A program made the translations under genes and the position numbers. From NCBI GenBank assembly GCA_000091205.1, contig AP006496.2: DNA of 64,000 nt; one strand, 5' to 3'. The notes below the pieces were generated by a model. That model was not told the DNA's origin. It searched no databases and worked only from the letters and a program-made list of their open reading frames with translations. Below, piece after piece: positions 13,201-60,116 of the stretch. The DNA comes from Cyanidioschyzon merolae. Taxonomy: Eukaryota. Position 1 is the first letter of the stretch. Each line of letters starts with the position of its first letter.

Positions 13201-13366
13201 GCTCGACCTCCCCACCGCAGCGTCTCGCAGTGGCGCTGTCGAACGCGAGTCAGCATCGCAACCAGCGCCTAGGAACGCATCCCAATTGAATGCCTTCAGG
13301 CAGAGTGAAGCACCCGATAACGACTGGGTTGCATTTGCTGATGATCAACACGAATCTGGCGACTGA
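10280..13366 (+). CDS. SAPS-domain protein (Sit4/PP6 phosphatase regulatory subunit family)
   Basis: ILAEDDLIPECKAMNLRLFEYFSQPTALRSLVQFAI...DDEEHKYAGMATEVLCSDVERLNEAF aligns with human PP6R [36 protein letters not shown]...[25 protein letters not shown]. The N-terminus MFFRPP...SSRIDEIL resembles MFWKF...SSHIDTLL. ATG start verified. The C-terminal acidic tail is low-complexity. Confidence 0.8.
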   Translation: MFFRPPYLGSSRIDEILDEAEREGRVGDQERSIFHSSDRQASQDRTSPSAGDGRAASSQRQGDVSEESDATASGGTSVDPVRQFQADEQQQSRIRRTVRTILAEDDLIPECKAMNLRLFEYFSQPTALRSLVQFAIGCDDDEEHKYAGMATEVLCSDVERLNEAFISNVDVLELFLGFVRRKPPLAADLVSNFAKIFLCMLRAKSEELLSAVDEHKSWFFSQGILQHLQHSALSNLIIELLIQNEIVISRKAVHIYAQAELLKRLVDLFVNETESPDDETLSNVMSIIVSLSGRAVPLAEAADIFHSVGGIPDELEGGSILETAARANQQHQLRTAASGQTSICPDERDESSATAMNQERKALKSLDLLRQPELLARLLSAFRQSDAHLLYGLSMLTELVSINKELSHEYETVQHHWEQTSLRLSTANERQDADTARAPLSLPSSSLLRPSSETTAFASSAEDSDTSSTSSSELGRTPAAAHSIRSKMGEFETALQAHLPYLLSRLEDDAESGHFGVIRLKLVEFLIQMMLDVSPQLCSRLLAMGIPATLTRLLRAYPWVSVFHHLYHRALQETLLTPFQSFLQAVQPALDEANLQAIADGTLIPDRLRAWFLEANIVQSFVQLQQVALNAESGRISPEDMRALVRAVPQLECTDHAARAPPSRIRVALSAHLAEMILEIYEQVFVPLSKMTATCTSGQEDAALATGAPGWQPATTKEATAGTATVVPLLQRTKRSKVPLLAFLSPLLGLDEEGGTMLAAWAALEAIATGPVYAEKSKQHRQLGGRRPSGLSSHSLSEDLAQLPTLTTDNATSMGEGDDEDGDVGMIGGVEDRQDVLEDRRRPRLQGRPPDGAVFQEDASSFVEQHDRMDPLFEDMDEDRDEYLPAPPFIDNEQQQASCGAKDAGTGPSSAPELSVDDMMTGLSEGEQESLTHFTDYLSQRARRTPANSNQSGERSQRKDARDNQEYSVTSAGALDLPTAASRSGAVERESASQPAPRNASQLNAFRQSEAPDNDWVAFADDQHESGD

Positions 13367-17489: not shown

Positions 17490-20400
17490 TCACGAACCGA
17501 GTTGCAGCGGGCCATGCACTGGACTCGGAATTAATGGAGGTGGTGGAGGTGGTGGAGGTGGTGGAGGCGGAACGATCGCCCCTGGGGCCTTGGTCGCCAA
17601 GTCGGTGGTACCCGCATGAAACGTCGCTATCTGAGGTGCCATACCATCACCCGTTTTCCACCACAGGAGATGCGCGTTTTCTTTCTCGGCCTCGTCCAAG
17701 TCAGCGCCAACGCGCTGTCGCCAGGTACAAGCAGTATTTTCATTCAGAGCGCGAGTCTCAGCGAGTGATTGATCCCACAACTCTACGAACTGCCATAGAT
17801 AACGAAACAGATCATCACGAAGACTCGCTCGTCGAGTCGCGACTTCCGGGCCGCCCACAAAACCCTGCTCCGTCATAGGTAAAAGCAGGAGCGTATCTTC
17901 AACTGCTTCGTTCATTTCCCGCAGGCGCTGCGCAAGCTGTTGTAACTTCGCTCGCGCCGGTTCCAGCCAGCGACGAAAGCACCTTGAGAGCGCCCGCCCC
18001 GTCGGCTCATTTGCGGAGAGCTCGCACTCGGAGGTGAGCTCCTGTAGATCATGCTCTAGCTCGCTGAAACCGGTGGATATGTGATCGAGTTCAATTCGAG
18101 ACGCAGTTTGGACACTGGCGAGCTCAGTTCCTAGCTCCAAATCTGCAGCCTGATGCTCACTGCTTTTCCGGAGCACTGCGCCCGCATAGGATATCACTGA
18201 ACGAGAGCGAGCGAGCTGCGGAACCGAGTCGATGGTAAAGCCAGCGGCATTCGCCCGCGCAGAACCGGCATTGAGAACATTTCCAATCACGAGAAGCACT
18301 TCCAAAACAAGACGCAAGCGCCTGGACTGGCGAATCTCCAGACACGCTCGGGTCACGCTGGTCACCGCAGCGTCCAGTTCCTGGAAGGCTTCCGTGAAGC
18401 GCCGCATGGTGCTCCATGCCGCGGCCTTTGCAGCGATACGCGGTACCCGCTGCAGCATCGTGAGCATAAACCGTTCGGGATACAGCAGCCGTTCCAGAGC
18501 AATGTCCTTTCGGGTCTGGAAGGCCTCCAGCAGGCGCGCCTGCTCTGGTGCTGATGGAAGCATCGGTGCTAGAATTTCGAAAAAGTCTGGATCGAGGGCG
18601 TCGAGATCACCGTGTACAAACGCATCGGCTACAGCCTCGCTAGAAACGTTTCGGAATCTGCCCAGCAAAATATCGAGGTTGCGGACGTGCTTCGCGTCCA
18701 GCACTGCGAAGCTCTCCGGTGCGTCAGCTGGTGCCGTTGACCGGCCAGCAGCAGCGCCGAAACCGGATGCCACCTCTTGGCTGAAGAGCTTCGCCATTTC
18801 GTCCATATCCGGGATCCAGCGCAGTGGACGCAGATCTGACCAGATGGAGCCCGGTACTTGGTGCAATGGAACACAATTCCAGTGCAAGCGTCTCCAGACA
18901 CGCGTTCGGGGCCCATTGCCGCCATTGGCACCTGCTGGTGTCGCCAGGTCGAGAGCCGGTGACGGCAGCGGTGGCAGCGGCGCACGGGAGACCGACGGAA
19001 AACGGGGTCCCGGCCGACGTACCGGGGATCTGGCGTCTGATCTCGTTGCAGCAGCAACTGCAGCAGGCTGCTGTGCCTTACCCGAGGAGATGGACAGCCC
19101 GACGGGTCTCTGCTCGAACCTCGAGATCCTTTCCGAGATGGTGTCTGGGGGCGGATTTCCCGTATCCCTGATCACGTCTACATTCGTTGCAAAGTGCAGC
19201 ACCGTGAGACTCTGGTCCGGAGCCTCCAGCTGGGGCGCAATGGCCGATGTCTCCACCAGGGACTGCTCCACAGCGACGTTCGTGCAGGCGGCTCGTGAAA
19301 TGGATACTTGTCCACCATGGTCCACAACAGAGAGATCACCATTCGGTGCGAGTATGACAACGGCCTCTGACGAATGATCGGCAGCGAATGCGTCAGCGGC
19401 CTGGTGATCGCGCGCTGTTGCTACCGCAAGCGGATCCAGCATCGAAGTCTGGACCTGGACGGAACGCGTGCGCTTCGGCTGCACCGTCCGATGGCGTCCA
19501 TGGCCGATGCCGAAGCAACCGATTGGCAAACAGGCCGCGGATAAGTACGTGGACGTTAGTTCAGGAGCGAGCCTTGTACAGCCCATAAGAGCGAGTGCCC
19601 TGAACGCTCGAAATACCAGCAACACGCTATCCCGCTGGTATGCGTTCGGGGTGCGCACGCACAGGTGCACGCCCGCCGGCGCACGCATCGGAGCGGAGGC
19701 GGCACGCATCGGCCGTTCGTGAATCTCCAGCTGCAACGTGTCCTCGGCACGCATCGGCCGTTCGTGAATCTCCAGCTGCAACGTGTCCTCGGCACGCATG
19801 TCTATATGAAGGGATTCGCTCCACGGGCGGCATTTGGGGTAGAGGCCGATGATGCCGCGCTGCGATAGCGTCAGCGTGGTGCGCATCCGCCGGTTGGGTT
19901 TCCCCGGCGGTCTCTGGATCCAGGAGCGAGGCAGGCGCCAGGTGCCACGCTGGAGCACCGCTTCGACATCGACGCGCAGTTCCTCGTGAATGGTAATGAC
20001 GGATGCCGTACGAACCGTAGCACCAGTGTCCAAAACGGCTGCAATGATACAGCCGACGTCGTCTGCAGTGACTGGGTAGCGTGCTTGCGGAGGTCCGTAC
20101 TCGAGGTCGGCGCGTTCCACGATGGTTTCGGTGTCGCTGTACGGAAGGGTCCGTCGCCACTGCTGCACGACACCGTCCCAGTACAGGTACGCGGCTGTTT
20201 CGGTGCGTCCACGGAGGACGTTCGGTGGCGAGACAGGGTCGGTGGCCGCGAACGCTCCAGCTCGCTGCGAAGCGACGGACGCAGCGCTCGAGCCGACCGC
20301 TGCCTTCATCGATGAAGCCAGACTGCTTGAATCCATCTGCAACAGGACCAACTCTTCTCTCAGCGCTGCAACTCGTTGCATTCGATGGAGAAGTCGCAGC

Positions 20401-20741
20401 CAGGCTTCGGCTTCGAGCGCTTCAGCAAAGTCTATTCGATAGGCCACCGGGAAATCTCGCTCCGCCGCAACGCCGCTGACGAGAAGCAAACGTAAAGACG
20501 TCGAAGAAATCCGCTTTATATGCAGCTTCGAGACACGTAAACACAGGTTGTCATGATGAAAGTGCACGCGATCCAAGGTCGAGTTCACGCACGCGTTCGT
20601 GGCGACTGTCGTGCCGGAAACACCGTCCCCGCGCTCCACAGTGAGTAGAACCGAGGTTTCAGGTTGGAACGCAGCCCGAGCAACTGCCTCAGCAATACAG
20701 AGCCTCCGCTGCGTAACCAGAGCCAAAGCATTCGTTTCCAT
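17490..20741 (-). CDS. Formin (FH2-domain actin nucleator)
   Basis: FH2 lasso and core motifs appear in the canonical order: VWRRLHWNCVPLHQV...IWSDL, then HVRNLDILLGRF...DPDFFEILAPMLPSAPEQARLLEAF, then LLVIGNVLNAGSARANAAGFTIDSVPQL. A short PLPPLPSP stretch precedes FH2 and a P13 tract lies at the extreme C-terminus. The ORF-track start at 20798 is GTG; the first ATG is at 20741 (cat at 20739-20741). Confidence 0.85.
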   Translation of the reverse strand: METNALALVTQRRLCIAEAVARAAFQPETSVLLTVERGDGVSGTTVATNACVNSTLDRVHFHHDNLCLRVSKLHIKRISSTSLRLLLVSGVAAERDFPVAYRIDFAEALEAEAWLRLLHRMQRVAALREELVLLQMDSSSLASSMKAAVGSSAASVASQRAGAFAATDPVSPPNVLRGRTETAAYLYWDGVVQQWRRTLPYSDTETIVERADLEYGPPQARYPVTADDVGCIIAAVLDTGATVRTASVITIHEELRVDVEAVLQRGTWRLPRSWIQRPPGKPNRRMRTTLTLSQRGIIGLYPKCRPWSESLHIDMRAEDTLQLEIHERPMRAEDTLQLEIHERPMRAASAPMRAPAGVHLCVRTPNAYQRDSVLLVFRAFRALALMGCTRLAPELTSTYLSAACLPIGCFGIGHGRHRTVQPKRTRSVQVQTSMLDPLAVATARDHQAADAFAADHSSEAVVILAPNGDLSVVDHGGQVSISRAACTNVAVEQSLVETSAIAPQLEAPDQSLTVLHFATNVDVIRDTGNPPPDTISERISRFEQRPVGLSISSGKAQQPAAVAAATRSDARSPVRRPGPRFPSVSRAPLPPLPSPALDLATPAGANGGNGPRTRVWRRLHWNCVPLHQVPGSIWSDLRPLRWIPDMDEMAKLFSQEVASGFGAAAGRSTAPADAPESFAVLDAKHVRNLDILLGRFRNVSSEAVADAFVHGDLDALDPDFFEILAPMLPSAPEQARLLEAFQTRKDIALERLLYPERFMLTMLQRVPRIAAKAAAWSTMRRFTEAFQELDAAVTSVTRACLEIRQSRRLRLVLEVLLVIGNVLNAGSARANAAGFTIDSVPQLARSRSVISYAGAVLRKSSEHQAADLELGTELASVQTASRIELDHISTGFSELEHDLQELTSECELSANEPTGRALSRCFRRWLEPARAKLQQLAQRLREMNEAVEDTLLLLPMTEQGFVGGPEVATRRASLRDDLFRYLWQFVELWDQSLAETRALNENTACTWRQRVGADLDEAEKENAHLLWWKTGDGMAPQIATFHAGTTDLATKAPGAIVPPPPPPPPPPPPLIPSPVHGPLQLGS
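17536..17570. repeat. (GGAGGTGGT)n microsatellite encoding the C-terminal poly-proline (P13) of the formin on the minus strand
   Basis: ggaggtggtggaggtggtggaggtggtggaggcgg is read directly. Confidence 0.9.
19701..19790. repeat. Perfect 45-bp tandem duplication (2 units) in-frame inside the formin CDS
   Basis: Unit gcacgcatcggccgttcgtgaatctccagctgcaacgtgtcctcg occurs at 19701..19745 and 19746..19790. It encodes MRAEDTLQLEIHERP twice. A partial third unit follows. Confidence 0.9.
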
Positions 20742-23708
20742 TTCAATGGAAAGGGAACGTGCTTGCCCAGAGTTTACCGAGCAGCCACGGAGACTCACGT
20801 TGCAGGCGAAAGGAGAGAAGCGAACCGATCCGCCCCGGGAATTTGAATCCGCGCAGCGCGATCGCTCGCCAGCGGCGGTATGATGGCGGCCTCATTCGCG
20901 TGCATGATAGGATGTACCACAACGGCCAGTATACCCGGGAGGGAGTATGGGTTATGGAGCTTGGACCTAGGTGTAACGATGGGTGCTTTACCGTACACCG
21001 ATATGAAACGTGCAATCGGTGAGCGCTGGTCTGCGCGTAAACGTTTCGTCAAAGAAGATAATCGGGTGGTTTCGTTCGCCTGTGTCTATGGTCATCGATG
21101 CTGTTGACACCGCAATATACGGAGCGCCGGAGGAAAGCATCGCAGCATATCAAAACTCTTGGATGGGCTAACTGGATCCCGGCATTTCCACTGAGATTCC
21201 CAGAATACGACGCTCGGACAAGGCGGAAGAACGCGGTGCGTCGCGCGTTCGTGCTCGTTTCAGGAGCGCATGATGCATAAACTCCATTTCGAAAAAACGT
21301 ACGCTGCGACCCGCATAGGTCCGTAGGTTCTGTGCGGAATTCAAGCTTTCATTCACGTTCTATCACAATACAGTTGAAACTGCGCCCAGCCGCGGTCTCG
21401 AAGCAGCCATCAATGCTGTTTGCGCGCACCATCTCGGGGCAAGCCTTGCTGGATGTGCGTTTTCAGCATGTTTCGAGGCGTCTCGCGCGACAGCGGCCAT
21501 GCTTTCGTGTGCAGGAGCGCTTCCATCTATCGCGCGGGTTGCCGGTCTTAGAAGGACGCGCATTGCGTTGCGGAGGCATGCCATCGGCTTGTCCAGACAT
21601 GCCTCGGGAACGAGACGCTCGTCGTGCACAGTATCGCTGCCGCCGTGCAGAGGTGACCCTGTTCATTAGCGGTGTCACCATGGCTCTGGGGCCGAATACC
21701 GGATGCAGCACTTTCCTCCATCTATCCATCCGAACGTCCGTCCGACCATTGATCTGCTGCCTTGTGTGCCAGTAGATGTAGACGACGTACGTAGACCAGC
21801 GAGCCGCTTGCTGCAGATCTATATCCTGGTGTCTGGTTCTATGGATGCGGAACGTCGCCAAGCTGTCCGGATCGGTCACGGAATCCGCCAAAGCCTACGT
21901 CGTGCGCCCCGAACATGCTCGTCTCTGTTCAACGGTACAGAAGCGGGATGTCCCGGGTCGTTACCTAGAGACATGATGCGTGTTCGGAGCGCATCATTCC
22001 CTGATCCGAGGTCCCTGTCAGACGCGTCTGCGATTCACATTCACCGGAAGAAGCCATCATCCATGTCACAAGGCTCACGATTGTACTCCATTATGGAATC
22101 GAAGCTCGTCGCTTCCGAGACTCGCAAACGAGGGATTGTACTGCGCGTCAAGCTTCCAGCTTACGGCAAATGTCATTATTCATTGGAGACCCAGCGAGGC
22201 AGGCCCACAAACCTATGTTACCTGGACGCCAACTCGCGACGCTGTCGTCTCGATGCACGCCTTGTAACGTCCTGGGATTTCAGGCGCACACACGAGAGAT
22301 ACCCGACTGCCCGCGTGCATCATCCGATACGGAGCGCGCACCAGCTGAGCGTTTTGATGAATTATGTCCAAAGGCTGTAGTTTATTTCCCACGAATACAG
22401 TGAGACAAGAGAGCGTAACAAAAGAGGAATCATGCGTTGTGCTCTCGATCTCCCTATCATTCAGAGCCGAGGAACGCTACGAGGTGTCCTCATGTCCGTG
22501 ATCATTTCGGGGCGGGAAAGCGAGGATGAATCACGACCGGATCCTCCGAATGCGCGAAAACCGTCAATTGCCTGTTGATGAAACTTTCTCGATGATGCGT
22601 CAACTGTGGGGTCGCGGGAAACGGGGTATACCTCGAGGCGACACTTCGTGGGGCACGGCGAATCTGTTTTGGACCTTTAGGGCATCGGCACGGTCGCATG
22701 GTGGATCAATTTGTTTATTCTTATCTGGGGAGGTGTTCTGGAGTCGCTCGTACGCGACAGCGTCTCTAGTGGAACAGAAATCTTGTTCTGGCTACGGGCA
22801 GCTTACACTGCTGTCAGAAGCATCTGATTTCATGCATGGATCCCTACGATGCGAAAAAGAACAGAGATCAACGAGTGATTAGCAACTCGAGAACAGCTTC
22901 TTCCCGGCTTCACGGTGAGCGTTGAAAGGGAAAAAAGTTTTCCGTAATTTCGAAAGTGTATCGTGTTGGTGGAATTTGGCGCGAACCGGATGAGTCCGTC
23001 AGGCCAGAGCTCGCTGTGCCTCTAAGGTGCCGGGCCAGTAGCGAGTTCTGAGCAGCTCGTCCGCAACGCAGTTTATTCTGCGACTAGGGGCAGTTAAGCT
23101 GCGTCTGGGCGTCGCCCATGTTGCAATTATCTCCTAGCATATCGCTTCGCTCTGTCGCAGGCGGCAGGTCTGCTTACCCATTTTTCAGGCTCCCAGAATG
23201 CTTACATAATCCGATTCCGTACCTGGTGAAGCGGCCCGCAATCCGATGCCCTCAGCAGTATGGCAAAGCGTTCTTGTCCCCGTGCTGCATCCGCATCAGC
23301 GGTTTAGGCGCAATCGCGGATGCAGCAAGACAGGCACTCGCAACACAATGGAACATTCAAAACGGCAAGTGCATCCAGGCAGAGGCAAGGGCCATGGAAC
23401 TTGGACGTAGAGTGCATCATGGTGGACGCTTTCCCGAATACCAGTTTCCAATCCGCAGGCGAGGATCCCCGATCAACAGAAACGTTTTATCAAACGAAGA
23501 AAAAGATGCGTTGCACGTCGATACCCGAAAAGGGGCATCGCACGCCTGATGATGCAGCGTCGGCGCCGCCGCTGCCGCCGCTGCCGCCACTGCCCCAAAC
23601 GTACACCCATCCCAGCAAGGTGTCTAGTGACACCTGCTTCGTTTACGAAACAGCAATAGCACCGTTTGCGCTGGCACCGCACTCTAGAGACCGTACGTTG
23701 CTCCGGCT

Positions 23709-41989: not shown

Positions 41990-43137
41990 AAATGGAACGC
42001 TGAACTTGTCGATCTGTTCCTGCGTATCGATTGGGTTTTCCGAACGATTTACCAGAGACAGAGCTTCGAGATTCGCAGTGCAGCAATACGGGATTACGGA
42101 TTCATAGATAATTTCAGGAGTTTCCATCGTCTTGTCGCGGAAATTCAGGATGCCAAGGATATCGGGGTGATTCGCAACACACTCGAACAAAGGCACCTCA
42201 AATAGATGATCGTATCTTCCAGTGCATACGCACGAGGCTCCGCTCTCCTCCAATCCCTGCGGTACCAGCATGCTCTAATCAGGTATGCTTCGGGTTTTCG
42301 ATTTCTGTGGTCCAAGGCAACTCGCGGACGCGACAATGCGCGCTGTTGAATGGACGAGGAAGACAACTCGGCGTCGTCGTTTGAAGAGTTGTTGCATGGA
42401 GAAGGGTCCTGGATGCTGACTTGAGGCATCGCAGCGATCGACTCGAATGGAGTGTCGAAGGAGCAACCCATATCGACCGGATTTCCATACTGGATTTCCG
42501 TCTCGGTTCTTGGTTGTGCATGGAGAACATTGCGTTCAGCAAATCCTCTATTGATCGGAAGGGCGTGCGCTTGCTTGTGAAGCGAACAGCGTACCCGCCT
42601 ATGCGACTGCCCAGAGGAGGCTCGTATCGGAAGTGTGCGGCACTCGGCATTGAGACTGAGGCAGATATCATGGGGCGCCCTCTCTACCAGTCCGGGGCAC
42701 GTACCGGGCGAAGAAGCGAGCGGTGACGCACCCCAGGGCGGCGCTCGGAGGCGGAGGCGGCACGGGAGGCCCACGGGAATACCCTGCGGTAGCCGAACGA
42801 TACCCCGACGAATTCGCTCCCCGGATTCATACAAAGCAAAGGCACGTAGTAAGGGAAACATGTATCGATTGTGACGCCAATGCATACACTGCATGAAGAA
42901 CTGCTGCAGGCGGCGACCTTGCGACTCGAACGCTGCCATCAAAGTCCTTCGACTGCTGCAAACGTAGCCAGTTCGAAAGGAACGACCGAGTTGTTCACAG
43001 CCGGCGCTCAGAGAGAGTCTAAAGGAAGCGGTTGCCGAGAAATCCCGCATATATCGGTGTTGATCACAGTCGAAAGAAGCCAAACCAGTAGCGTATACGC
43101 CCGAGTTGTCAAACTGGACCCATTCCATCTCAGTCTG
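41990..43137. repeat. Inverted repeat arm A (1148 bp); partner at 53790..54937
   Basis: Reverse-complement comparison gives coordinate pairs x+y=96927. Boundaries are at 41990/54937 (outer) and 43137/53790 (inner). About six substitutions were seen in 1148 bp. Confidence 0.9.
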
Positions 43138-43443
43138 GTATGGCTCCATCATAACCCTGGACCCCCGGGTGTGCGTGTGCTATCAATAACCATCGGGAGA
43201 CCGCAGTTCCATTTTAGACGTCGCCAGGTGCTGCTCATCCTGGAACCGTGTTCAGCTCAATACCAGCGAGCAAGTCGATGGAGCGATCGCCCTTGGCGTA
43301 CGTTTTCGCTGGCGAGGGCGTTGCAGATGCGCCTCTCGCTGGCCAGCCTGCGGAGATGCAACATTTTTGTAATCGTAGTAGGTAGCGGGTCTGGGAAGTG
43401 GTACCAGGACGGCTCGTTTCTCTTGACTAGACGCGCATGGCTC

Positions 43444-45714
43444 ATGACGACGTACTTCGATCGGCTGCTGGCGTCGCTTTCTTCAGCGCTCGAGATTAAT
43501 GCAGCGACGCTGAGCGGTGCTGCGGATATCATCGTCATCCAACAGCCCGACGGACGCCTGGTGTCGACTCCGTTTCACGTCCGTTTCGGTAAACTGCAGT
43601 TACTTAAAAGTCGCGAGAAGGTCGTGGAGATTGAAGTTAGTCCGCTTGATGAAGTTGAAGCGGTAGCGGTAGCAAAGCAGCTGGAGCGCTCCTCCACGGC
43701 GAGCACCGGGCCACCGCCACCCCAGAGCCTAGAAACATCACGGGGCACGTACAGGGCACCGCTTACCATGCTGCTTGGCTCAGCTGGTGAGGCTTTTTTT
43801 GTAGAAGAGACATCTTCGGAGTCTACCGTCGAACTCGAGGGACAAACCCCCGGCGAGGCAATATGGGTGGAACGCGCCCCCAGTGAGCCACCTTCACCCT
43901 GCAGCGAAACCTTCCGCGACTGGCGCTCAGCAGCTGAGCCCAGTGCCGCGTCAAGCTGCCGAGAAGAGTCCCAGAGCGCCTTTAGCGATAGCGAGCAGCC
44001 CACTGGAGCCGAACGCCTCCAGCTGCCTCCGTCGGACTCCGCAGACCTGAGGGCATCCTCGCAACCAGAGTCGCGATGGAGCAGCCGCTTCGGCAGTATG
44101 CTACGAAGGCAACGTCAAACGGGGGCGGAAACACGCTCCTCATCGAGCACTCCGACAGATGTCATAACTTTGGGGATAGAGTCGCTGACGTCATCGCCAC
44201 CGGCCGCTGCACAGCAACAAGCTGAACTGCTGGCATCGCGGGCTTCATCGCGATCCTCACTAGAGGGCGAGAGGTCTCCCGCAGCTGGCGTGGAGTCGCT
44301 TGTCTTTGAAATGGATGACAGTGGCCAAGCGATGACTGAGTCCAGTGTACCGGAAGTTGCAGCCGCTACCGCACCCGCACCCGCAGCATTCACGAGCGCC
44401 ACGGATGTGCATGCTGTCGGCAAGCCCCCCGTTGCCTTGTCGCTATGTGGGCACTTGATCACACCCCAAATGACCCCTGTACAAGTACATGAGGTATTCG
44501 AAGCAAACCGCATATCCCTTGATTACTTTCGGGGTCATGTTACCATTCTCAATCATCCAGATATTCTGGTACGCATTCATGACCAAATCTACCCGCTACG
44601 AGTCGCAACACCGTTGCTGTACGGCATGTTGGCCTTTAACACGGTGCTTGATCCCCATGCGGTCGATCGACAAACAACAGCACCAAAAGCGCGACCGCCG
44701 AGAGCGCGTTTTACCTGGTTCGGGCTTCGAAGCAGTCAACTAGAGGACTCTAGTACCGATTTGTTGCAGCTGGGTGAGCCACTCACGGAAGCGGAAACTG
44801 AACTCAAGCCACCGATGGAAACAAGCACGACCAGCACCGCCGAAGCGAAGCAACATCTGCTGCCGCTGCACCGACCGCGATACATGCGCAAGTCGTTGTA
44901 TCCGAGTTCTGCGCAGTTGGCGCAACTCGGCCTGCGACCCGGAACTAATCTGATCACGTTCACAGTGCAGAGTCGATTACAAGGAGTTCAACGAGTTTGT
45001 AGTCGAATCTATTTGTGGCCCCATGATGTGCGTCTATGCATCAGCGACGTCGACGGTACCATTACACGTAGCGATGTGCTTGGACAAATTCTCCCGCGTG
45101 TCGGCAAGGACTGGAGTCATCAGGGCGTCGCCAGTTTGTATCGAGCCATCGCTCGGAACGGGTACAAGTTTCTCTATTTAACATCGCGTGCGATAGGACA
45201 GGCGTCGGCTACTCGAAGCTACTTGACAACGCTGCAGCAAGAGGGGGGTCTTGGTCTTCCCGACGGGCCGCTCCTGCTCTCCCCGGATCGGGTGATCGAG
45301 TCTTTCACGCGCGAAGTGCTTCGACGGCGTCCGCAAGACTTTAAGATTGCAGCATTGGAGCAGGTCCGTCGACTCTTTCCACCGGGCAACTACAATCCGT
45401 TTTTCGCGGGTTTCGGGAACCGCGACTCTGACCGCATCGCCTATGCGGCCGTTGGGGTGCCACCAGAGCGCGTCTTTATTGTGAACGCTCGCGGCGAGCT
45501 GCAGGTGGGTAACCACGTATACAGTGCGCTCTCGTCGTTCAACGCGCTGCAGAAACTCGTTGACTCCATCTTTCCCGACATTTCCACCGTTTCTGGGCAG
45601 CAGAAAGTAATGGAAGTTCACGAAGCGCATGCCTTTAATGATTATCAGTATTGGAAGCGACCCTATTCACCGACGGGAAGTAGCAGCGACGCTGTATCGC
45701 GTTTCTTTTCGTAG
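43444..45714 (+). CDS. LPIN: Lipin / phosphatidate phosphatase (Pah1/Ned1 family)
   Basis: The N-LIP block is GAADIIVIQQPDGRLVSTPFHVRFGKLQLLKSREKVVEIEV. The C-LIP HAD catalytic motif is ISDVDGTITRSD (DxDxT), followed by FFAGFGNRDSD. The CDS is started at the ATG at 43444, because the ORF-track N-terminal 191 aa lie inside inverted-repeat arm A and are unrelated to lipin. Confidence 0.9.
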   Translation: MTTYFDRLLASLSSALEINAATLSGAADIIVIQQPDGRLVSTPFHVRFGKLQLLKSREKVVEIEVSPLDEVEAVAVAKQLERSSTASTGPPPPQSLETSRGTYRAPLTMLLGSAGEAFFVEETSSESTVELEGQTPGEAIWVERAPSEPPSPCSETFRDWRSAAEPSAASSCREESQSAFSDSEQPTGAERLQLPPSDSADLRASSQPESRWSSRFGSMLRRQRQTGAETRSSSSTPTDVITLGIESLTSSPPAAAQQQAELLASRASSRSSLEGERSPAAGVESLVFEMDDSGQAMTESSVPEVAAATAPAPAAFTSATDVHAVGKPPVALSLCGHLITPQMTPVQVHEVFEANRISLDYFRGHVTILNHPDILVRIHDQIYPLRVATPLLYGMLAFNTVLDPHAVDRQTTAPKARPPRARFTWFGLRSSQLEDSSTDLLQLGEPLTEAETELKPPMETSTTSTAEAKQHLLPLHRPRYMRKSLYPSSAQLAQLGLRPGTNLITFTVQSRLQGVQRVCSRIYLWPHDVRLCISDVDGTITRSDVLGQILPRVGKDWSHQGVASLYRAIARNGYKFLYLTSRAIGQASATRSYLTTLQQEGGLGLPDGPLLLSPDRVIESFTREVLRRRPQDFKIAALEQVRRLFPPGNYNPFFAGFGNRDSDRIAYAAVGVPPERVFIVNARGELQVGNHVYSALSSFNALQKLVDSIFPDISTVSGQQKVMEVHEAHAFNDYQYWKRPYSPTGSSSDAVSRFFS

Positions 45715-46086: not shown

Positions 46087-47340
46087 TCAAGCATCGGACT
46101 GATCACTGTGATGCTTGGTTCGCTCCTCCCAGGACGTTGCCGGGAGGTTGCTCCAGAATGCTGCCGGTCTCTGGACAAAATATCGCGGTGCTCGACGATG
46201 GGCACGCTGACGCCTATTCTCGCGTAGCAGTGTAAAGTACGGCAGACAGCACAGGAGAAAGGCAGCCGCGTTGGACACCAGCAGCATGACCAGGTCGGTC
46301 CACCAGAGCACGTTACTGCAGCAGGGCAGCTTCGACGCGACCGCCGCTGCACTGCAGGTGCAGTCGGGACCACAACGACCAAAAGGCGTTTTGCCCGACA
46401 CGGCATTCACAATGAAAATAGCCTCAGTGATGATGAGTGAAAGGAAATACGACAACAATACCGCGGCGCCGATGATGCCGGCGAGGCCGGTCGCCTCCAC
46501 TGGTCGCTTTGCGATTCTTGTGAAAGCAACAAGAATGAGCCCGTAGCCGCCCACCGAGAGCCATAGAACTGCGGTGGTGTAGAGGGTCACCCCCATGGAT
46601 ACCGAGCACGGAGTCGCGTGACGATAACGATCCGCAGAAATGATAATAATGACGACAAAGGGCCAGACAAAGAGGGCCAATGCCAACATGGTGACCCCAA
46701 AGGCGAACAGCAGCAGACGCTTCAGGTTTTCGCGACTGGAGAGATGGCGCTGGTGAAAGCGACCCAGCATGTCGCCAACGTTGCGGCCCAGGCGACCGGG
46801 CTTGAGATTCCCCGCAAAATGTCGCCAGGAAAAATCCTGCAAGATGAGTTGACTTCCGCGCCAACGTACCGGCTTGGCGGCAACCTGACTCGAGTCCATG
46901 TTCGAACGTTGCATCTCTGCAATCTGCTGAGCGTACCAGTCGGAGGTGAAGAGCTGACCACCGCTCGGAGACGTTCCGGTTTCGGGCACGGAGGTGCCGC
47001 TTCTGTCTTCGTCCAACGTTTCTGGGCGCTGTAATGAGTGCAGACTGAACCCGCTACGCTCTTGTTTCGCAGTCGCTGTGTAGAGACGCTCGGCATATTG
47101 ATAGAGGGCAAGCGTTTCTGGCTCGGCCTCTTTCTGGAGCCAAGTATTATACAGATGCTTTCTGCGGAAAGTACTGGGGTCTGTTTCGTACGAACCAGAT
47201 GGAAGGGTTAATGTGGGCGGATCTCCAGCGATACTGGAGATGTCCGGGCCTGTCGCTTGCGCATCCGCTGACCCCAGCGCTGCCTGCAGCTCCACGAGGG
47301 ACGGAACGCGTCTAGGCGCCCGCTGTTTCGCCGCATCCAT
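46087..47340 (-). CDS. Hypothetical four-pass membrane protein with a Cys-rich loop
   Basis: Four hydrophobic segments (LLLFAFGVTMLALALFVWPFVVIIII, VTLYTTAVLWLSVGGYGLILVAFT, GLAGIIGAAVLLSYFLSLIITEAIFIV, WTDLVMLLVSNAAAFLLCCLPYF) follow a 190-aa soluble N-terminus. The loop between the third and fourth segments is GRCGPDCTC...CC. ATG start verified. Confidence 0.5.
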   Translation of the reverse strand: MDAAKQRAPRRVPSLVELQAALGSADAQATGPDISSIAGDPPTLTLPSGSYETDPSTFRRKHLYNTWLQKEAEPETLALYQYAERLYTATAKQERSGFSLHSLQRPETLDEDRSGTSVPETGTSPSGGQLFTSDWYAQQIAEMQRSNMDSSQVAAKPVRWRGSQLILQDFSWRHFAGNLKPGRLGRNVGDMLGRFHQRHLSSRENLKRLLLFAFGVTMLALALFVWPFVVIIIISADRYRHATPCSVSMGVTLYTTAVLWLSVGGYGLILVAFTRIAKRPVEATGLAGIIGAAVLLSYFLSLIITEAIFIVNAVSGKTPFGRCGPDCTCSAAAVASKLPCCSNVLWWTDLVMLLVSNAAAFLLCCLPYFTLLRENRRQRAHRRAPRYFVQRPAAFWSNLPATSWEERTKHHSDQSDA

Positions 47341-50580: not shown

Positions 50581-52617
50581 CTAGTCCGATGACAAGGAGC
50601 CCGCGAGCCGCTGAACGATGCATATATTCGCATCTGGCGGCAAACGATGCCCAGTCGAGTCGAGACGGTCCTCCCAGTGATGACCATCAGCATCGGTGTG
50701 GTACCGAACATGCCAGGTCTCGCCGGCGGTGTTGCGACCCCATCGACAACCGTGGTACTGCGGATGCTCGGCAGATGAGTCGGCGCGGCGGCTTTCAAAG
50801 TACCACTCGTACCATACTTGGGATTCGTGATTGTGTGGCAAGATTCGTGCATCCACACCGAACTTGTCCCCGAAACGGAATAGGACCTGGGGTTGGTTCT
50901 CGAGGCGGTACTCGCCATGACGCTCGAGCCACCAGTTGCCGTCTGGGTTACGTCGTACGCGGGCATCCTGCCACATGAGCGCTGAGAGCAACGGAAGACT
51001 CTGCATCGGTCCTGTGGGGAACGAGTCCACCGGTTTCGCATTGCACTCGGCAGCGGTACTCGACTGGCAAGGCAGCGCCGCATGGACGCCATCCTGGGCG
51101 CCTTCATGTTCAGAGATCGAAAGCGCACTGAGTGCAGTCATCGCGCCGGCGTATCGATCGGGGTGGCGTGCATGTCCGCAGGCCTCGATTTCCAGCGGAT
51201 GCTCGTTCGCTTCGTGGGAACTACGGGTAGAATGCGCACTAGGAGATCCCGAGGGAAAAGTGGTCCCTATGATTGACGCCAGATGCTCCCAGGGGCAATC
51301 GCTGTTCTCCTTTTCGGGCTCTGCAAGTGAGAAGCCAAGCGCCGATAGGCTTCTGCTGCTGCTGCTGCTGACGTTCTCGAAAACGGGCGCGTATAATTCA
51401 GCTCCAGGCATCGGCAACGAATACTGGATGCTATCATCCCAAGACGCTGGCAGAGATGCGCGTTTGCCCATTGGCCCTTTGCGGGGACCTGACTTCGATT
51501 GCTTCTCGGGTACATCTTGATTCCTTTCGCACAGCACTTGTATTTGTGGTTTGCTTTCCAGGCGCGCTCGGAATGGCGCTTGATTCTTCTCTATCTGCCC
51601 GAAAACTGTAGGGAATGCGAGATTCTCAGTTGTATGGACATTGGCGGATCGATGGTCCATCAGTTCTGAAGCAGGTAACTCGCTGCGGTGCGCTGTGTAT
51701 TCTTCATTCGTCGGTATCGCCGCGTCTTCGGAGTCGTCATTGGAATCCGACAAGGCGACGAAAGTGGCGCTGAGGGATAGATCATGCAGATTCGCATAAT
51801 GGCGACTATGGCGTCGGTACCACAGACGCTCGAGACGGTCGGGATCGTGCAGCTTCCGGCACGCGATTGTCTTGAGTGTCGGCCATGCACGCGCGCTGTA
51901 CAGCCGTACTGGCTTGGGTAGAGGCAGCAGCGGCAGCAGCCAATAGCACGGTTGCACATGCCGTATGACAGAAGCAGCCGATGCAGGGCTTTCAGGGAAC
52001 CTGCCTCTCGCAGGAGTGCGCTTGCGGCAGGAGCGGGCGAAGAGCGCGCTTCGCTCCTCACGCTCTCGGCTGCGTCTGCGCAAGCTGATGAGCACCAGCA
52101 CCCAGACGACCATCCAACCAGCTACATGGAGTGCAACAGGCACTCTTGGGAGCTGGAGCGGCGCGTGCTGCGAATGCCATCGCTCAGAAGCGCTCCACCA
52201 TGGGAGCCAAGAGTCCCGTCGAGCAGCGACCGCTCCCGATGGGAACGCCTCCGAAGCTGGAAAGCTGCTAGGTTCATGCAGGTCCACCGATAGCACGCAC
52301 CCAGACTGCGGCTCTAAAGGCCTGTAGAGTGTGCGGCCTTTCGTTCCTGTTGGAGCATCCCCGATCCCGTAAACAGAGCCCGCTGTATGCTCTTCTATTC
52401 CGGTTGACCCGGATGCCTCGCGCAGTTTCAGAGACTCGCGTTTTGAATGCCGCCTATACGGTGCGCGTGTTTCATGCAGCCGAAAATGGTCTTCGTTCAC
52501 GTTCGTTGGCGCATAGAGCGCAGCGTCGCGACCGTCTCGAGTTGCACGACCTCCGACGCCGTACGGATGCATATCCGGGGCGGTTTCCGACCAGGTTTCG
52601 CGCTGAGATCGCTGCAT
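50581..52617 (-). CDS. Hypothetical single-pass membrane protein with a Trp-rich C-terminal region
   Basis: The TM segment is LHVAGWMVVWVLVLISLRRR. The C-terminus carries repeated W/E motifs (WWLERHGEYRLE...VWYEWYFES...WHVRYHTDADGHHWEDR). The ORF-track start at 52707 is GTG; the first ATG is at 52617. Confidence 0.4.
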   Translation of the reverse strand: MQRSQRETWSETAPDMHPYGVGGRATRDGRDAALYAPTNVNEDHFRLHETRAPYRRHSKRESLKLREASGSTGIEEHTAGSVYGIGDAPTGTKGRTLYRPLEPQSGCVLSVDLHEPSSFPASEAFPSGAVAARRDSWLPWWSASERWHSQHAPLQLPRVPVALHVAGWMVVWVLVLISLRRRSREREERSALFARSCRKRTPARGRFPESPASAASVIRHVQPCYWLLPLLPLPKPVRLYSARAWPTLKTIACRKLHDPDRLERLWYRRHSRHYANLHDLSLSATFVALSDSNDDSEDAAIPTNEEYTAHRSELPASELMDHRSANVHTTENLAFPTVFGQIEKNQAPFRARLESKPQIQVLCERNQDVPEKQSKSGPRKGPMGKRASLPASWDDSIQYSLPMPGAELYAPVFENVSSSSSRSLSALGFSLAEPEKENSDCPWEHLASIIGTTFPSGSPSAHSTRSSHEANEHPLEIEACGHARHPDRYAGAMTALSALSISEHEGAQDGVHAALPCQSSTAAECNAKPVDSFPTGPMQSLPLLSALMWQDARVRRNPDGNWWLERHGEYRLENQPQVLFRFGDKFGVDARILPHNHESQVWYEWYFESRRADSSAEHPQYHGCRWGRNTAGETWHVRYHTDADGHHWEDRLDSTGHRLPPDANICIVQRLAGSLSSD

Positions 52618-53196
52618 ATCCCCTGTCAATGATTCAAAGAAAAAGTGTCTACTAGTACACGTCACCAATAGTTCCTGTAGCGTCAATAGAGCAGTTTCGT
52701 TGGTCACTGCTTAGAAACGCAAGGAATATGAATGCCAGTTGCATGTGGCGATAACGGCTGTGCCGTACGCGTGGCATGCACGGATCAGCGAGATCGCCTG
52801 GCGGGAAGCCGCCATACGATGCGTGCATGCGTACGTGCGTGCGCGATTCCGCAATGCGTAACGCCTCGGCGGTGCGCCGCGCGTTGCTGATCGCTATCGC
52901 ATCGCAGTCTTTGCCCTCAAAAGTGTTCCGCATTCAGGTGCATGTCATCAAATGCTTTTTCGCTGCTTACCGCGGACGCATGCAAAGTGCTTTCGTTTGA
53001 AGTGATGAAAAAACCAGGGGAAAGTATGGACATGCAAGTCGGGAATCCTAGGGGGGTCGTCATCGCCGGGTGCAGGAAAAACAACAAAAAATCCTCTTCT
53101 CGTTGACTCTCGAGCGAAGAAGAAGAACAATGGACGAAGAAGAAATGAGGAGATCGTCGAGAAAAGGCGTTTGCCCGATGGAACGATGACGAGACT

Positions 53197-53789: not shown

Positions 53790-54937
53790 CAGACTGAGAT
53801 GGAATGGGTCCAGTTTGACAACTCGGGTGTATACGCTACTGGTTTGGCTTCTTTCGACTGTGATCAACACAGATATATGCGGGATTTCTCGGCAACCGCT
53901 TCCTTTAGACTCTCTCTGAGCGCCGGCTGTGAACAACTCGGTCGTTCCTTTCGAACTGGCTACGTTTGCAGCAGTCGAAGGACTTTGATGGCAGCGTTCG
54001 AGTCGCAAGGTCGCCGCCTGCAGCAGTTCTTCATGCAGTGTATGCATTGGCGTCACAATCGATACATGTTTCCCTTACTACGTGCCTTTGCTTTGTATGA
54101 ATCCGGGGAGCGAATTCGTCGGGGTATCGTTCGGCTGCCGCAGGGTATTCCCGTGGGCCTCCCGTGCCGCCTCCGCCTCCGAGCGCCGCCCTGGGGTGCG
54201 TCACCGCTCGCTTCTTCGCCCGGTACGTGCCCGGGACTGGTAGAGAGGGCGCCCCATGATATCTGCCTCAGTCTCAATGCCGAGTGCCGCACACTTCCGA
54301 TACGAGCCCCCTCTGGGCAGTCGCATAGGCGGGTACGCTGTTCGCTTCACAAGCAAGCGCACGCCCTTCCGATCAATAGAGGATTTGCTGAACGCAATGT
54401 TCTCCATGCACAACCAAGAACCGAGACGGAAATCCAGTATGGAAATCCGGTCGATATGGGTTGCTCCTTCGACACTCCATTCGAGTCGATCGCTGCGATG
54501 CCTCAAGTCAGCATTCAGGACCCTTCTCCATGCAACAACTCTTCAAACGACGACGCCGAGTTGTCTTCCTCGTCCATTCAACAGCGCGCATTGTCGCGTC
54601 CGCGAGTTGCCTTGGACCACAGAAATCGAAAACCCGAAGCATACCTGATTAGAGCATGCTGGTACCGCAGGGATTGGAGGAGAGCGGAGCCTCGTGCGTA
54701 TGCACTGGAAGATACGATCATCTATTTGAGGTGCCTTTGTTCGAGTGTGTCGCGAATCACCCCGATATCCTTGGCATCCTGAATTTCCGCGACAAGACGA
54801 TGGAAACTCCTGAAATTATCTATGAATCCGTAATCCCGTATTGCTGCACTGCGAATCTCGAAGCTCTGTCTCTGGTAAATCGTTCGGAAAACCCAATCGA
54901 TACGCAGGAACAGATCGACAAGTTCAGCGTTCCATTT
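53790..54937. repeat. Inverted repeat arm B (1148 bp); partner at 41990..43137
   Basis: See arm A. Duplicated ORF-track proteins agree: 42145..43152(-) matches 53799..54782(+); 42279..42671(-) matches 54256..54648(+); and the first 89 aa of 42871(+) match 53778..54056(-). Confidence 0.9.
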
Positions 54938-57131: not shown

Positions 57132-57159
57132 TGCGTGCGTGCGTGCGTGCGTGCGTGCG
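57132..57159. repeat. (TGCG)7 microsatellite upstream of the RhoGAP start
   Basis: tgcgtgcgtgcgtgcgtgcgtgcgtgcg is read directly. Confidence 0.9.
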
Positions 57160-57243: not shown

Positions 57244-58581
57244 ATGTTGCCAGACACTGTCGTTCCAGCAGAGATACGTAGAGAAACCTCTTGCACTTGT
57301 GATGCTGAAGCGTTCAACGCGACGACAAGAGATATGAGCGCTGTGTCCCAAGTACCTGAGGTCTTGGCGACTGCATTGCCCGTGGCGGGTAGCGCAGTGG
57401 CGGGCGTAGCTGCAACCCCCGACTCTTTGACACAATCTGATCACCAGGTGATCCCTGGAAGCACATTACCTGTGACGTCGTCAACGACAGCGGGGCGCTT
57501 TCAAAATATCGAAGATGGAACAGAGCCAACTGCGAGTGCGTCGTCAGCACTCCGAGTGACGCTGATTGGGCGCGATAGCCTGCGGCCCGAAGGGAAGGGT
57601 CCCGGGCAGGGCGGCCCACCGGTGCGTACCGAAGTTGCGAACCGGGTGAAAGTGTTGCTTTTCAAGCAGCTGCAGAACGGTATTCATCCTGGAGGTGGGC
57701 ACAAATCTGCGGCATCGCATACTGAGCGCCTGGTCGTGAACGAGCCGGAAGCTCCCCACGGGTGTTTCTGTCGACGAAGTAGCAGTGCGCACCGCACCCC
57801 AAAGCCTGCAGTGTCGGCGCCAGCAAGCGCGTCCCAGGTCGACGACGAATCAGCACCCATTGCTGCCTGTGTTCTATTCGGGACGGACCCACAGCAACCC
57901 TGGAATCGTTCCGCCGTGCACCGCATCAGGCTTTGCGTTCGCCATCTTCGCGAGTGTCGCGGCTGTGAAACACCTGGTATTCTCGGAGCGTCCGGATCGG
58001 CGGGAGAAGTCGAACGACTCCGACTGCAGACTGCACATTCCGGGAGTCTTCCGACGCAGGCAGACCCGCATTCGATCGCGGGGCTCCTGAAGGACACGCT
58101 CCGGCGAACGCGTCCTGCACTGTTGTCATCAGATGGCTACCAGTGCTTCCTCGAAATGGCAAGGAAAAGCGGCCCGGGTACCTCCTGGGATGAGGCCATC
58201 AATATTTTCCGTCTCTGGCAACGTATTAGTGCGAGTCAACCGCATTCCTACTGTCGAGATGTACTTGTAGAGATTTTACTCCTGCTCAACGAGGTAAGTC
58301 GCCTCAACGACATCAACAAGATGACGAGTCGCAACCTGGCGGTGGTCATGGCGCCCTGCCTTTGTGACTGGGACCCGCTCCGGCCGAATGCGCTCGAGCA
58401 ACTGCATGTCATGACGGATATGGTGCAGTATCTGATAGAACGCGCGAAATTCGTCGCGGACATGGAGGGTCACCCCGGTACTGGACACGAGCGCATCAAC
58501 CTCGCACCGGTCTCTTGCGCGTACCATTCGAGCGCCGAGTCGCTCAACGCTGCGACCGTGAAACCGCCATGCTACGCGTAA
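57244..58581 (+). CDS. RhoGAP-domain protein with the arginine-finger position substituted
   Basis: TPGILGASGSAGEVERLRLQ aligns with the p50RhoGAP block TEGIFRRSANTQVVREVQQK, HSIAGLLKDTLRRTRPALLS with LPAVILKTFLRELPEPLLT, and DINKMTSRNLAVVMAPCL with QNKMTNTNLAVVFGPNLL. The ORF-track start at 57139 is a GTG inside the (TGCG)n microsatellite; the first ATG is at 57244. Confidence 0.8.
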   Translation: MLPDTVVPAEIRRETSCTCDAEAFNATTRDMSAVSQVPEVLATALPVAGSAVAGVAATPDSLTQSDHQVIPGSTLPVTSSTTAGRFQNIEDGTEPTASASSALRVTLIGRDSLRPEGKGPGQGGPPVRTEVANRVKVLLFKQLQNGIHPGGGHKSAASHTERLVVNEPEAPHGCFCRRSSSAHRTPKPAVSAPASASQVDDESAPIAACVLFGTDPQQPWNRSAVHRIRLCVRHLRECRGCETPGILGASGSAGEVERLRLQTAHSGSLPTQADPHSIAGLLKDTLRRTRPALLSSDGYQCFLEMARKSGPGTSWDEAINIFRLWQRISASQPHSYCRDVLVEILLLLNEVSRLNDINKMTSRNLAVVMAPCLCDWDPLRPNALEQLHVMTDMVQYLIERAKFVADMEGHPGTGHERINLAPVSCAYHSSAESLNAATVKPPCYA

Positions 58582-60116
58582 AGACACCACGACCTCGTAA
58601 TCGCGTTCCTGTCAGAGGTGACCTCAACTGGAGGCTTCGACCCATTCCCGCCCGCTGGTTGCACTTGCATCACGACCATTTGCAAAAGCGAGACCCACGG
58701 GATGTTTCATTCCGATGGAACGACCACGCTACATACGCTGTTGGTGTGTAATCGCCGCGAATGTCTGGCTTTGCAGTTGCTGGGTTCACGTCGGTAGCAG
58801 GTCCGTCACTTGGCGCTGAAGCTGCAGAACATTCTCGGCGAGTGTGCCTGTCGAGCACAGCAGGCGAGCGAATGCGGGAACATGGTTACCGTGTAACGTC
58901 GCCCCGAAGGTCGGAAAGCCCCAAAGACGCAGTCCTTTGAATGCGGCTGGCTCAGTGACCCTGCTGGTCAGCCTGGTGTTCCAGTACCTAACGCCGTTGC
59001 GCACTGAGCACGCGATGGAAAGGCCGCAAACCATGCTGGGCACCTGGTATCCGAGCGCATGTGGCGCCGAAGTTATGGCCTCTGGCTTGGTCCTATAGCA
59101 CGCCGCGCTGCTCGTTTTAAGCAGCACGCCTTGTCTAATAGGCATGCTTCGGGCGCGGCGAGCACCAGGGACCTGGCGGGTCCGCGGACTCGTTCCAGGA
59201 CCTGCGGGCATGGCGCACATGTGTGGGTTTGTGTGTACACGGAACCCCGACACGAGAGATATCCAATGCCACGATCGACTCTTGGTAGAACATAGTATCT
59301 GCCGGATATTCTAGGCATCCCACAGGCCGCGGAACGGCGCCCAGTGGTCAGTCTGCAAGCCTCGGGGATGCCATGCGCCATGGACAAACAGGCGACGCAG
59401 AGCAGCGCCCTCGAGTAGACGTCCGTCGGGGTAAAACATGAGGTCGCGCTGACCCTGCAACGCGCCTCTGGCAGCGTTTTCAATAGCGGGGTAGGCGTCC
59501 GTTTTGGGTTTGCCTCCTGGAGCGTTCGCGGATCGCTCAGACCCGTATTTTATCGGAGGATACTCCCCGGAAACAGCGAGAGCATAAAAGCGTCGGCAGC
59601 GGAGCTGGGGTCTGTTCCTGGTCGCTTCGCAGGCTCCGTCCATTCATAACGCTCCAGTTCCATGCATTCATCGATCTCACACGACCTACCATGTAAAGTT
59701 TCTGACGGTACTGATTGCCGTCCAGCTTGCAAGCGGGGTCAGATGCTGCTTGCAGCCATCGCGCCTGAACAAGCGACCTGTATACCATGTTCGCACACAA
59801 AAAAGCGCACAAGGTGTTTTTCTATTCATTGGCATGCGCTGCGGTGCTCTCATGGCAAAAGCGTGCAGTACGGGCGGCGCGACTCGAACGCGCGATCTTG
59901 TGCGTGTTAGGCACACGTCATAACCATCTAGACCACGCCCGCGCGACGAATAAGCATGCACAACAATTGATATATAAATGCTTTGGAATCTGTGCGCAAG
60001 GATGGCGAGTATGATTCGGATTCGCAGGGGCGCTGCTCCGAGCCCCGAGGTACTGGACGTCCTCGTTGACTAGCGGAGCGTCTCAGACAGACCCAAGAGC
60101 GTTGTGGGTTTCACTC

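Follow-up and report, generated by a model that had tools for sequence, protein, structure and literature searches.

The window analysed here, 64,000 nucleotides (nt) of nuclear DNA from the red alga Cyanidioschyzon merolae 10D (contig AP006496.2, assembly GCA_000091205.1), contains a gene for a RhoGAP-like protein in which the arginine finger, the defining feature of a catalytic Rho GTPase-activating protein (RhoGAP), is replaced, as judged from sequence alignments. We consider it somewhat better than an even bet that the product of the gene is a pseudo-GAP, a stand-alone RhoGAP-like protein with impaired catalysis, which still docks on a Rho-type GTPase and belongs to a red-algal protein family. 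This is the best-supported reading because the protein has lost the arginine but preserved both the fold and the docking residues, and no basic residue is present in the loop of the cyanidiophycean proteins. The structural premise of the pseudo-GAP put forward in the original prediction, a real RhoGAP fold with the finger arginine replaced, held up in the Pfam search, the AlphaFold2 model, the Foldseek comparison and the sequence alignments.

The product of the open reading frame (ORF) is 100% identical to the C. merolae 10D protein BAM81198.1 (XP_005537234.1, UniProt M1VJ04), which is annotated in the databases only as a "hypothetical protein, conserved" or a "Rho-GAP domain-containing protein". 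The C. merolae genome has almost no introns, which allows the ORF to be read directly. In some environmental gene models the start is placed at Met31 (position 57334), giving variants of 415 amino acids (aa).

The protein matches the Pfam RhoGAP family (PF00620) between residues 228 and 374 (nt 57925-58365) at E=1.4e-18, scoring 67.6 bits where the cut-off is 24.5, which is far beyond chance. All nine aligned members of the red-algal family match PF00620, and a Pfam scan of the C. merolae protein with lenient thresholds (E<=1 to 10) returned RhoGAP as the sole family. The structure was predicted with AlphaFold2 from a 90-sequence alignment; a model built from three sequences only reached a predicted local distance difference test score (pLDDT) of 40. 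In the model used, most of residues 220-410 have a pLDDT above 90, and at roughly residues 300-330 it drops to ~60-80. Foldseek matched this model to the solved RhoGAP domains of Myo9b (5hpy), p190 (3fk2 and 5irc), GRAF (1f7c), chimaerin and p50RhoGAP in the PDB, with a probability of 1.00, target-normalised template modelling scores of 0.73-0.84 and root-mean-square deviations of 2.2-3.9 Å over ~185 columns. By sequence and by its modelled all-helical RhoGAP/BH fold, the domain is a genuine RhoGAP domain and a member of the superfamily.

The finger position was read from several independent alignments. BLASTP against the GAP domain of p50RhoGAP (a sequence 100% identical to PDB 1grn_B and corresponding to residues 238-439 of 6r3v_A) reproduced all three conserved blocks over which the two domains had been said to align. 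In the first block TEGIFRRSAN of p50RhoGAP pairs with TPGILGASGS, so that Gly248 and Ala249 stand in place of Arg282 and Arg283 and both arginines of GIFRRS are replaced in GILGAS, as predicted. In the second block ILKTFLRELPEPLL pairs with LLKDTLRRTRPALL; this block retains both Lys319 and Arg323, and its PEPLL segment is indeed degenerate (RTRPALL). In the third block NKMTNTNLAVV pairs with NKMTSRNLAVV, in which Asn391 is kept, in agreement with the conservation described earlier for this segment.

The phmmer alignments to Myo9b (GLYRKSG), ARHGAP11A (GLFRKSG) and p190 (GIYRVSG) have the same register as BLASTP. We also built a hidden Markov model (HMM) from 81 canonical, finger-bearing RhoGAP domains, leaving out the protein's own relatives to exclude their pull, and this model aligned its GIFRisGs segment to GILGASGS with high posterior probability. 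No Arg was placed at the finger position of the C. merolae protein by BLASTP, phmmer or the canonical-only HMM, and the register shift that could have brought one there was not seen. Across 90 aligned domains the finger column holds 81 Arg, five Gly and four Ala, and the nine exceptions are the red-algal family.

The residues that serve canonical RhoGAPs to dock on the GTPase and to hold the finger loop are retained. None of the 90 aligned domains deviates at Lys283, Met360 or Asn364, and Arg287 and Pro371 are invariant within the red-algal family and nearly invariant in the other aligned domains. We take the equivalents of Arg323, Asn391 and Pro398 of p50RhoGAP to serve in GTPase docking, as in RhoGAP-Rho complexes. 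Lys283 corresponds to Lys319 of p50RhoGAP, which as a "secondary lysine" gives support to the finger loop (PMC3852207).

Conservation was measured as region-wise identity; at 50-57% protein identity synonymous sites would be saturated. The RhoGAP-like domain of C. merolae is 70, 66 and 54% identical to those of Cyanidiococcus, a cyanidiophycean metagenome-assembled genome (MAG) and Cyanidium, respectively, and a motif in the N-terminal part of the protein (residues 104-144) is 85, 85 and 43% identical. The N-terminus, the linker and the tail show only ~20% identity to the cyanidiophycean orthologs. Because the identity of domain and motif is high compared with the ~20% elsewhere, the protein would be functional and not a relic. 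Judging by their conservation, the docking residues Lys283, Arg287, Asn364 and Pro371 are under strong purifying selection.

The same comparisons leave next to no probability for the idea that the finger loss is an artefact or the mark of a decaying gene, whether by sequencing error, strain mutation or pseudogenisation. The GGA codon of Gly248 (57985-57987) speaks for such an event in that one base change would turn it into an Arg codon (AGA or CGA). Yet GILGASGS is identical in 15 independent assemblies with at least 99% identity (the 10D reference and 14 environmental ones) and so is not a sequencing error, ten members from at least seven red-algal genera have Gly or Ala there, and the ORF is intact, with 66-70% identity to the orthologs in the domain against ~20% in the linkers. 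Artefact and pseudogene are thus ruled out by population and ortholog data.

Two orthologs with GILGASGS came from a word-based search, one in Cyanidiococcus yangmingshanensis (57% identity) and one in the cyanidiophycean MAG GCA_041825655.1 (50% identity). HMMER, run exhaustively against 1.84 billion representatives and with the finger column read in the best 150 matches, added members with Gly at the finger position from Cyanidium caldarium (GIFGASGS) and Galdieria sulphuraria (GIFGVSGS), and members with Ala from Rhodosorus marinus (RLFAVSGS), Porphyridium purpureum (RLFAVSAD) and Compsopogon caeruleus (RPFAVSAC). Two MMETSP transcripts with the finger loop RLFAVSA.. (Ala) also belong to the family. 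Among these 150 matches Arg was found in none of the ten family members (five Gly and five Ala), as opposed to 139 of the 140 others, where the sole Arg-less protein is an unrelated multi-repeat protein from rabbit. The ortholog comparison suggested in the original prediction therefore gave the same kind of substitution throughout and no canonical GIFR. With ten members spanning at least seven genera, the red-algal RhoGAP-like proteins are, as far as their sequences tell, a lineage-wide finger-less family. No published description of such a family was found in the searchable literature, and what is new here is a compact red-algal family that would have kept a finger-less RhoGAP fold together with its docking residues since before the split of the Cyanidiophyceae.

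The finger loop differs between the two parts of the family. All five cyanidiophycean sequences read G-I-(L/F)-G-(A/V)-S-G-S and contain no basic residue, and the C. merolae loop has Gly at both the -3 and the finger position. The non-cyanidiophycean members (P0168, P0040, P0038, P0055 and P0090) have RLFA or RPFA in place of the canonical GIFR, so that the Gly at -3, present in 79 of 79 canonical domains, is changed to Arg and the finger Arg to Ala. This swap, by which the loops of four to five family members retain one Arg, could be taken to favour a working GAP with a non-canonical mechanism. The catalytic Gln of the GTPase would then be oriented without an arginine, or a basic or polar residue would be supplied from elsewhere, for instance the -3 Arg of the non-cyanidiophycean members or an Arg of the N-terminal motif, in analogy to the Asn mechanism of Rap1GAP. 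The docking residues are fully conserved, as catalysis would need, several Arg of the N-terminal motif are invariant within the Cyanidiophyceae, and the same caveat has been raised for the class III formins (Grunt et al., PMC2386819). We nevertheless regard such a mechanism as unlikely, as none of the five cyanidiophycean loops, that of C. merolae included, offers a basic residue, the N-terminal Arg are not conserved outside the Cyanidiophyceae, and the N-terminal helix is modelled at low confidence. It weighs in the same direction that p50RhoGAP and Cdc42GAP are largely inactive when the finger is mutated.

Some positions are invariant in the family but lie outside the canonical site (W220, P270, W376, L384, L387 and M390). 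W376 is present in 9/9 family members and in 2/2 canonical proteins from Galdieria, and in 0/79 of the other aligned domains. Family-specific invariants of this type are what one might expect if the RhoGAP fold had been repurposed for a ligand other than Rho, be it Rab, Arf, Ran or a non-GTPase. In line with this, the RhoGAP-like domain of OCRL binds F&H peptides on a separate surface (PMC6743453), a complex of ArhGAP12 with G-actin (PDB 6gvc) is among the Foldseek matches, and the cytoskeleton of C. merolae is highly reduced (PMC7503314). The strictest positions of the family (S250, K283, R287, M360, N364 and P371) are, on the other hand, those of all Rho-directed GAPs, so that a retained Rho-type docking site is the simplest explanation, and the Pfam scan gave no additional domain or motif pointing to another ligand. 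A repurposed fold is therefore in our view about as doubtful as the non-canonical mechanism.

In the pseudo-GAP reading, which we prefer, the domain would dock on the GTP-bound form of a red-algal Rho-type GTPase. Without the arginine the transition-state charge would not be neutralised, and hydrolysis by the bound Rho would therefore not be accelerated, or only weakly at most. The protein might then serve as effector, as adaptor or as a shield of Rho-GTP that competes with true GAPs, with the N-terminal motif and Cys174 providing attachment to a partner or a membrane. We infer GTPase binding without catalysis from the retained docking residues, and the scaffold role that had been suggested for the protein is putative. 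That a RhoGAP domain without a finger can still bind Rho is illustrated by PDB 5m6x, also among the Foldseek matches, in which the R85A finger mutant of p50RhoGAP was crystallised with RhoA.GDP.MgF3-. Finger-less RhoGAP-like effectors have precedents, discussed by Grunt et al. 2008 (PMC2386819).

A Rho partner is to be expected in C. merolae, since both Dbl-like and PRONE guanine nucleotide exchange factors for Rho (RhoGEFs) have been reported for C. merolae and Galdieria, and since only the Chlamydomonadales and the Apicomplexa are listed as lineages without Rho (Fort & Blangy 2017, PMC5499878). A 2025 review also places RHO and PRONE-GEFs in rhodophytes, and CMJ091C and CMH183C have been listed as Cdc42 analogues (Maschmann et al., PMC7503314).

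Several points count against a Rho-docking pseudo-GAP. That C. merolae has a Rho GTPase is taken from statements in the literature, and both GTPase binding and a lack of GAP activity are predicted from the protein sequence. The degenerate PEPLL segment (RTRPALL) after helix B might weaken the contacts to the GTPase. For the non-cyanidiophycean members it is conceivable that the -3 Arg (RLFA) is a relocated finger that gives residual activity. Finally, finger-less RhoGAP folds also bind ligands that are not GTPases, e.g., in OCRL (PMC6743453).

A more far-reaching version, in which an ancient stand-alone red-algal pseudo-GAP from before the split of the Cyanidiophyceae would be the principal Rho effector or hydrolysis shield, or in which a relocated Arg (RLFA) would be ancestral and later lost in the Cyanidiophyceae, seems to us improbable, more so than either the non-canonical mechanism or the repurposed fold. 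If the relocated Arg were real and C. merolae had no finger-bearing RhoGAP, Rho would cycle there with no arginine-finger GAP. The protein would also gain in interest should C. merolae turn out to possess a Rho GTPase and RhoGEFs while having no arginine-finger RhoGAP.

As a class, pseudo-GAPs are well known, and the principle is not new. In animals the class includes the ASH-RhoGAP-like proteins OCRL and INPP5B as well as ARAP2, ARHGAP36 and DEPDC1, which have a RhoGAP fold without the arginine and serve in binding, not catalysis. The C. merolae protein differs from these by an independent origin and by the lack of 5-phosphatase, ASH, ArfGAP and DEP domains in the Pfam scan, and its best structural matches in Foldseek are active GAPs and not OCRL or p85. 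A separate OCRL-like protein (XP_005535444.1) is encoded in C. merolae. Membership of the OCRL/INPP5B group was rejected, as this gene is distinct and RhoGAP is the sole Pfam family (E<=1 to 10) of the protein studied here. OCRL and ARAP2 are both described as finger-less RhoGAP-like proteins (PMC6743453, PMC2386819). Of the two finger-less comparators named in the original prediction, OCRL is a good precedent, but p85 is imprecise, as it keeps its arginine (PMC2386819); OCRL, ARAP2 and the plant class III formins are better choices (Grunt et al., PMC2386819).

The canonical RhoGAPs (p50RhoGAP/ARHGAP1, Myo9b, p190A, GRAF and the chimaerins) share with the C. merolae protein the fold and the equivalents of Lys319, Arg323, Asn391 and Pro398. 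They differ from it at the finger, where the C. merolae protein has Gly248 and Ala249 for Arg282 and Arg283, and in PEPLL, which is degenerate in C. merolae; the WDP and N-terminal motifs are specific to the family. The class III formins of plants and prasinophytes are likewise from archaeplastids, have a small residue in place of the finger Arg and have been proposed to bind Rho without activation (PMC2386819). In these formins, however, Leu has replaced the Lys and the domain forms part of a fusion with FH1-FH2 (PMC2386819), whereas the C. merolae protein keeps Lys283 and stands alone. By the finger column, no finger-less green-lineage domain of the class III formin type was present among the 150 nearest domains. 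With Lys283 kept and FH2 lacking, a specific kinship with the class III formin domains was also rejected.

The plant RopGAPs (CRIB-RhoGAP) and the REN1/PH-GAPs are archaeplastid proteins as well, and they too have a short N-terminal motif in front of the RhoGAP domain. Both keep the arginine finger. Membership of the CRIB-RopGAPs was rejected for the red-algal family, in which the finger is absent and none of the nine members gave a PBD match at E<=10. The N-terminal motif of the C. merolae protein was also considered as a half-CRIB (I-A-R-P-x5-F) and rejected, as no PBD match was found at E<=10, its P-F spacing does not fit and it lacks the HxxHVG half. The motif, which has no Pfam match at E<=10, includes a predicted helix at residues 129-144 (AlphaFold2 pLDDT ~60-66), and the other red algae have a weaker, TLIxRPExL-like version of it. 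Further along, Cys174 lies in a hydrophobic context; it is, speculatively, a candidate lipidation or contact site.

The closest finger-bearing relatives found are the RhoGAP-EH proteins of Galdieria (P0023 from G. phlegrea, P0035 from G. partita and P0177 from G. sulphuraria), which are red-algal too. In the exhaustive HMMER search they were the best-scoring single-domain canonical matches (P0023, E=1.8e-16). Like the family they have the WDP motif, as part of a DWDPLxPNAxE..L..VT segment, but they keep GIFR, carry a C-terminal EH domain (PF12763) and lack the N-terminal motif. When the Galdieria RhoGAP-EH paralog was the query of a word-based search, all proteins returned were from Galdieria and none from C. 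merolae. As far as alignments tell, the family and the Galdieria RhoGAP-EH proteins are red-algal sister paralogs marked by WDP. A duplicated finger-bearing red-algal RhoGAP is the probable origin of the family, and the WDP motif together with the top scores of the Galdieria proteins suggests that the finger was lost after this duplication and before the Cyanidiophyceae split from the other red algae.

The family can be seen as a natural experiment on what a RhoGAP fold may do after the loss of catalysis. C. merolae has ~4,800 genes and a single actin and is genetically tractable, and to our knowledge its cytoskeleton is without myosin, Arp2/3 and WASP. With this small gene set, reduced cytoskeleton and tractability, the RhoGAP-like protein could provide a clean handle on Rho signalling in a minimal eukaryote. 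The features of the gene and of its surroundings are collected in Table 1.

Table 1. Coordinates of the RhoGAP-like gene, its protein features and other genes in the window.
Feature	Position	Strand	Basis or remark
RhoGAP-like protein, coding sequence	57244..58581	+	ORF list and sequence; intact, 445 codons plus stop
N-terminal motif, aa 104-144, RVTLIGRDSLRPEGKGPGQGGPPVRTEVANRVKVLLFKQLQ	57553..57675	+	Conserved within Cyanidiophyceae
Cys motif GCFCRR, aa 173-178	57760..57777	+	Cys174 invariant in 9/9 aligned members
RhoGAP-like domain, folded unit, aa 218-408	57895..58467	+	Pfam match, AlphaFold2, Foldseek
Finger loop GILGASGS, aa 245-252	57976..57999	+	Alignments to canonical RhoGAPs
Helix B segment KDTLR	58090..58104	+	Lys283 and Arg287 = p50RhoGAP Lys319 and Arg323
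NKMTSRNLAVVMAP block, aa 358-371	58315..58356	+	Met360; Asn364 = Asn391; Pro371 = Pro398
WDP signature, aa 376-378	58369..58377	+	W376 in family and Galdieria RhoGAP-EH proteins only
Formin gene	17490-20798	-	FH2, E=2e-55; 37 kb from RhoGAP-like gene
Lipin/phosphatidate phosphatase gene	42871-45714	+	LNS2, E=3e-87
tRNA-Val(AAC)	59868-59942	-	Short spacer between RhoGAP-like gene and UTP20-like ORF
UTP20-like open frame, 1328 codons	60015-63998	+	Weak UTP20_N match; runs past window end

In Cyanidiococcus (L001) and the MAG (L002) the RhoGAP-like gene is flanked by a lipin gene and by a UTP20-like gene, and the lipin ortholog adjoins it on the opposite strand. In the C. merolae window the UTP20-like ORF directly follows the RhoGAP-like gene and lipin is found 11.5 kb upstream. 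Because of this synteny with lipin and the UTP20-like gene, the Cyanidiococcus and MAG genes are considered orthologous to the C. merolae gene, and the arrangement indicates a local rearrangement in C. merolae.

The formin in the window has FH2 as its sole Pfam domain, and no Pfam domain falls within its ~630 N-terminal residues. C. merolae has two formins, CMN049C and CMN212C, and the formin in the window is probably one of these, which would put the window on chromosome 14. Five further long ORFs (327-1028 aa) are located at 670-3144 (-), 10280-13366 (+), 46087-47340 (-), 50581-52707 (-) and 53799-54782 (+), and none of them matches a Pfam family at E<=0.001.

The 5' leader of the RhoGAP-like gene contains a (TGCG)7 microsatellite at 57132-57159, ~85 nt before the ATG. 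The upstream in-frame translation reads VRACVRAPSVEAS in the environmental variant P0001 and RACVRAFARAPSVEAS in the C. merolae window, and the different lengths of the two suggest a length polymorphism in the leader beside the repeat. At the other end, the protein terminates in PPCYA (58567-58578), P0002 in PPCCA and P0168 in LPC. A Cys within three residues of the C-terminus, as in several family members, recalls lipidation motifs, and the Galdieria, Porphyridium and Compsopogon members are without it. C-terminal prenylation at the PPCYA end was rejected, as the alignment shows that this end is not conserved across the family. Outside the family, the rabbit protein mentioned above (P0106, Oryctolagus cuniculus, 1061 aa) has three RhoGAP-like repeats without a finger (AIFSKCA, GIFKKCV), and P0021 (1004 aa) has four near-identical tandem RhoGAP domains that bear the finger.

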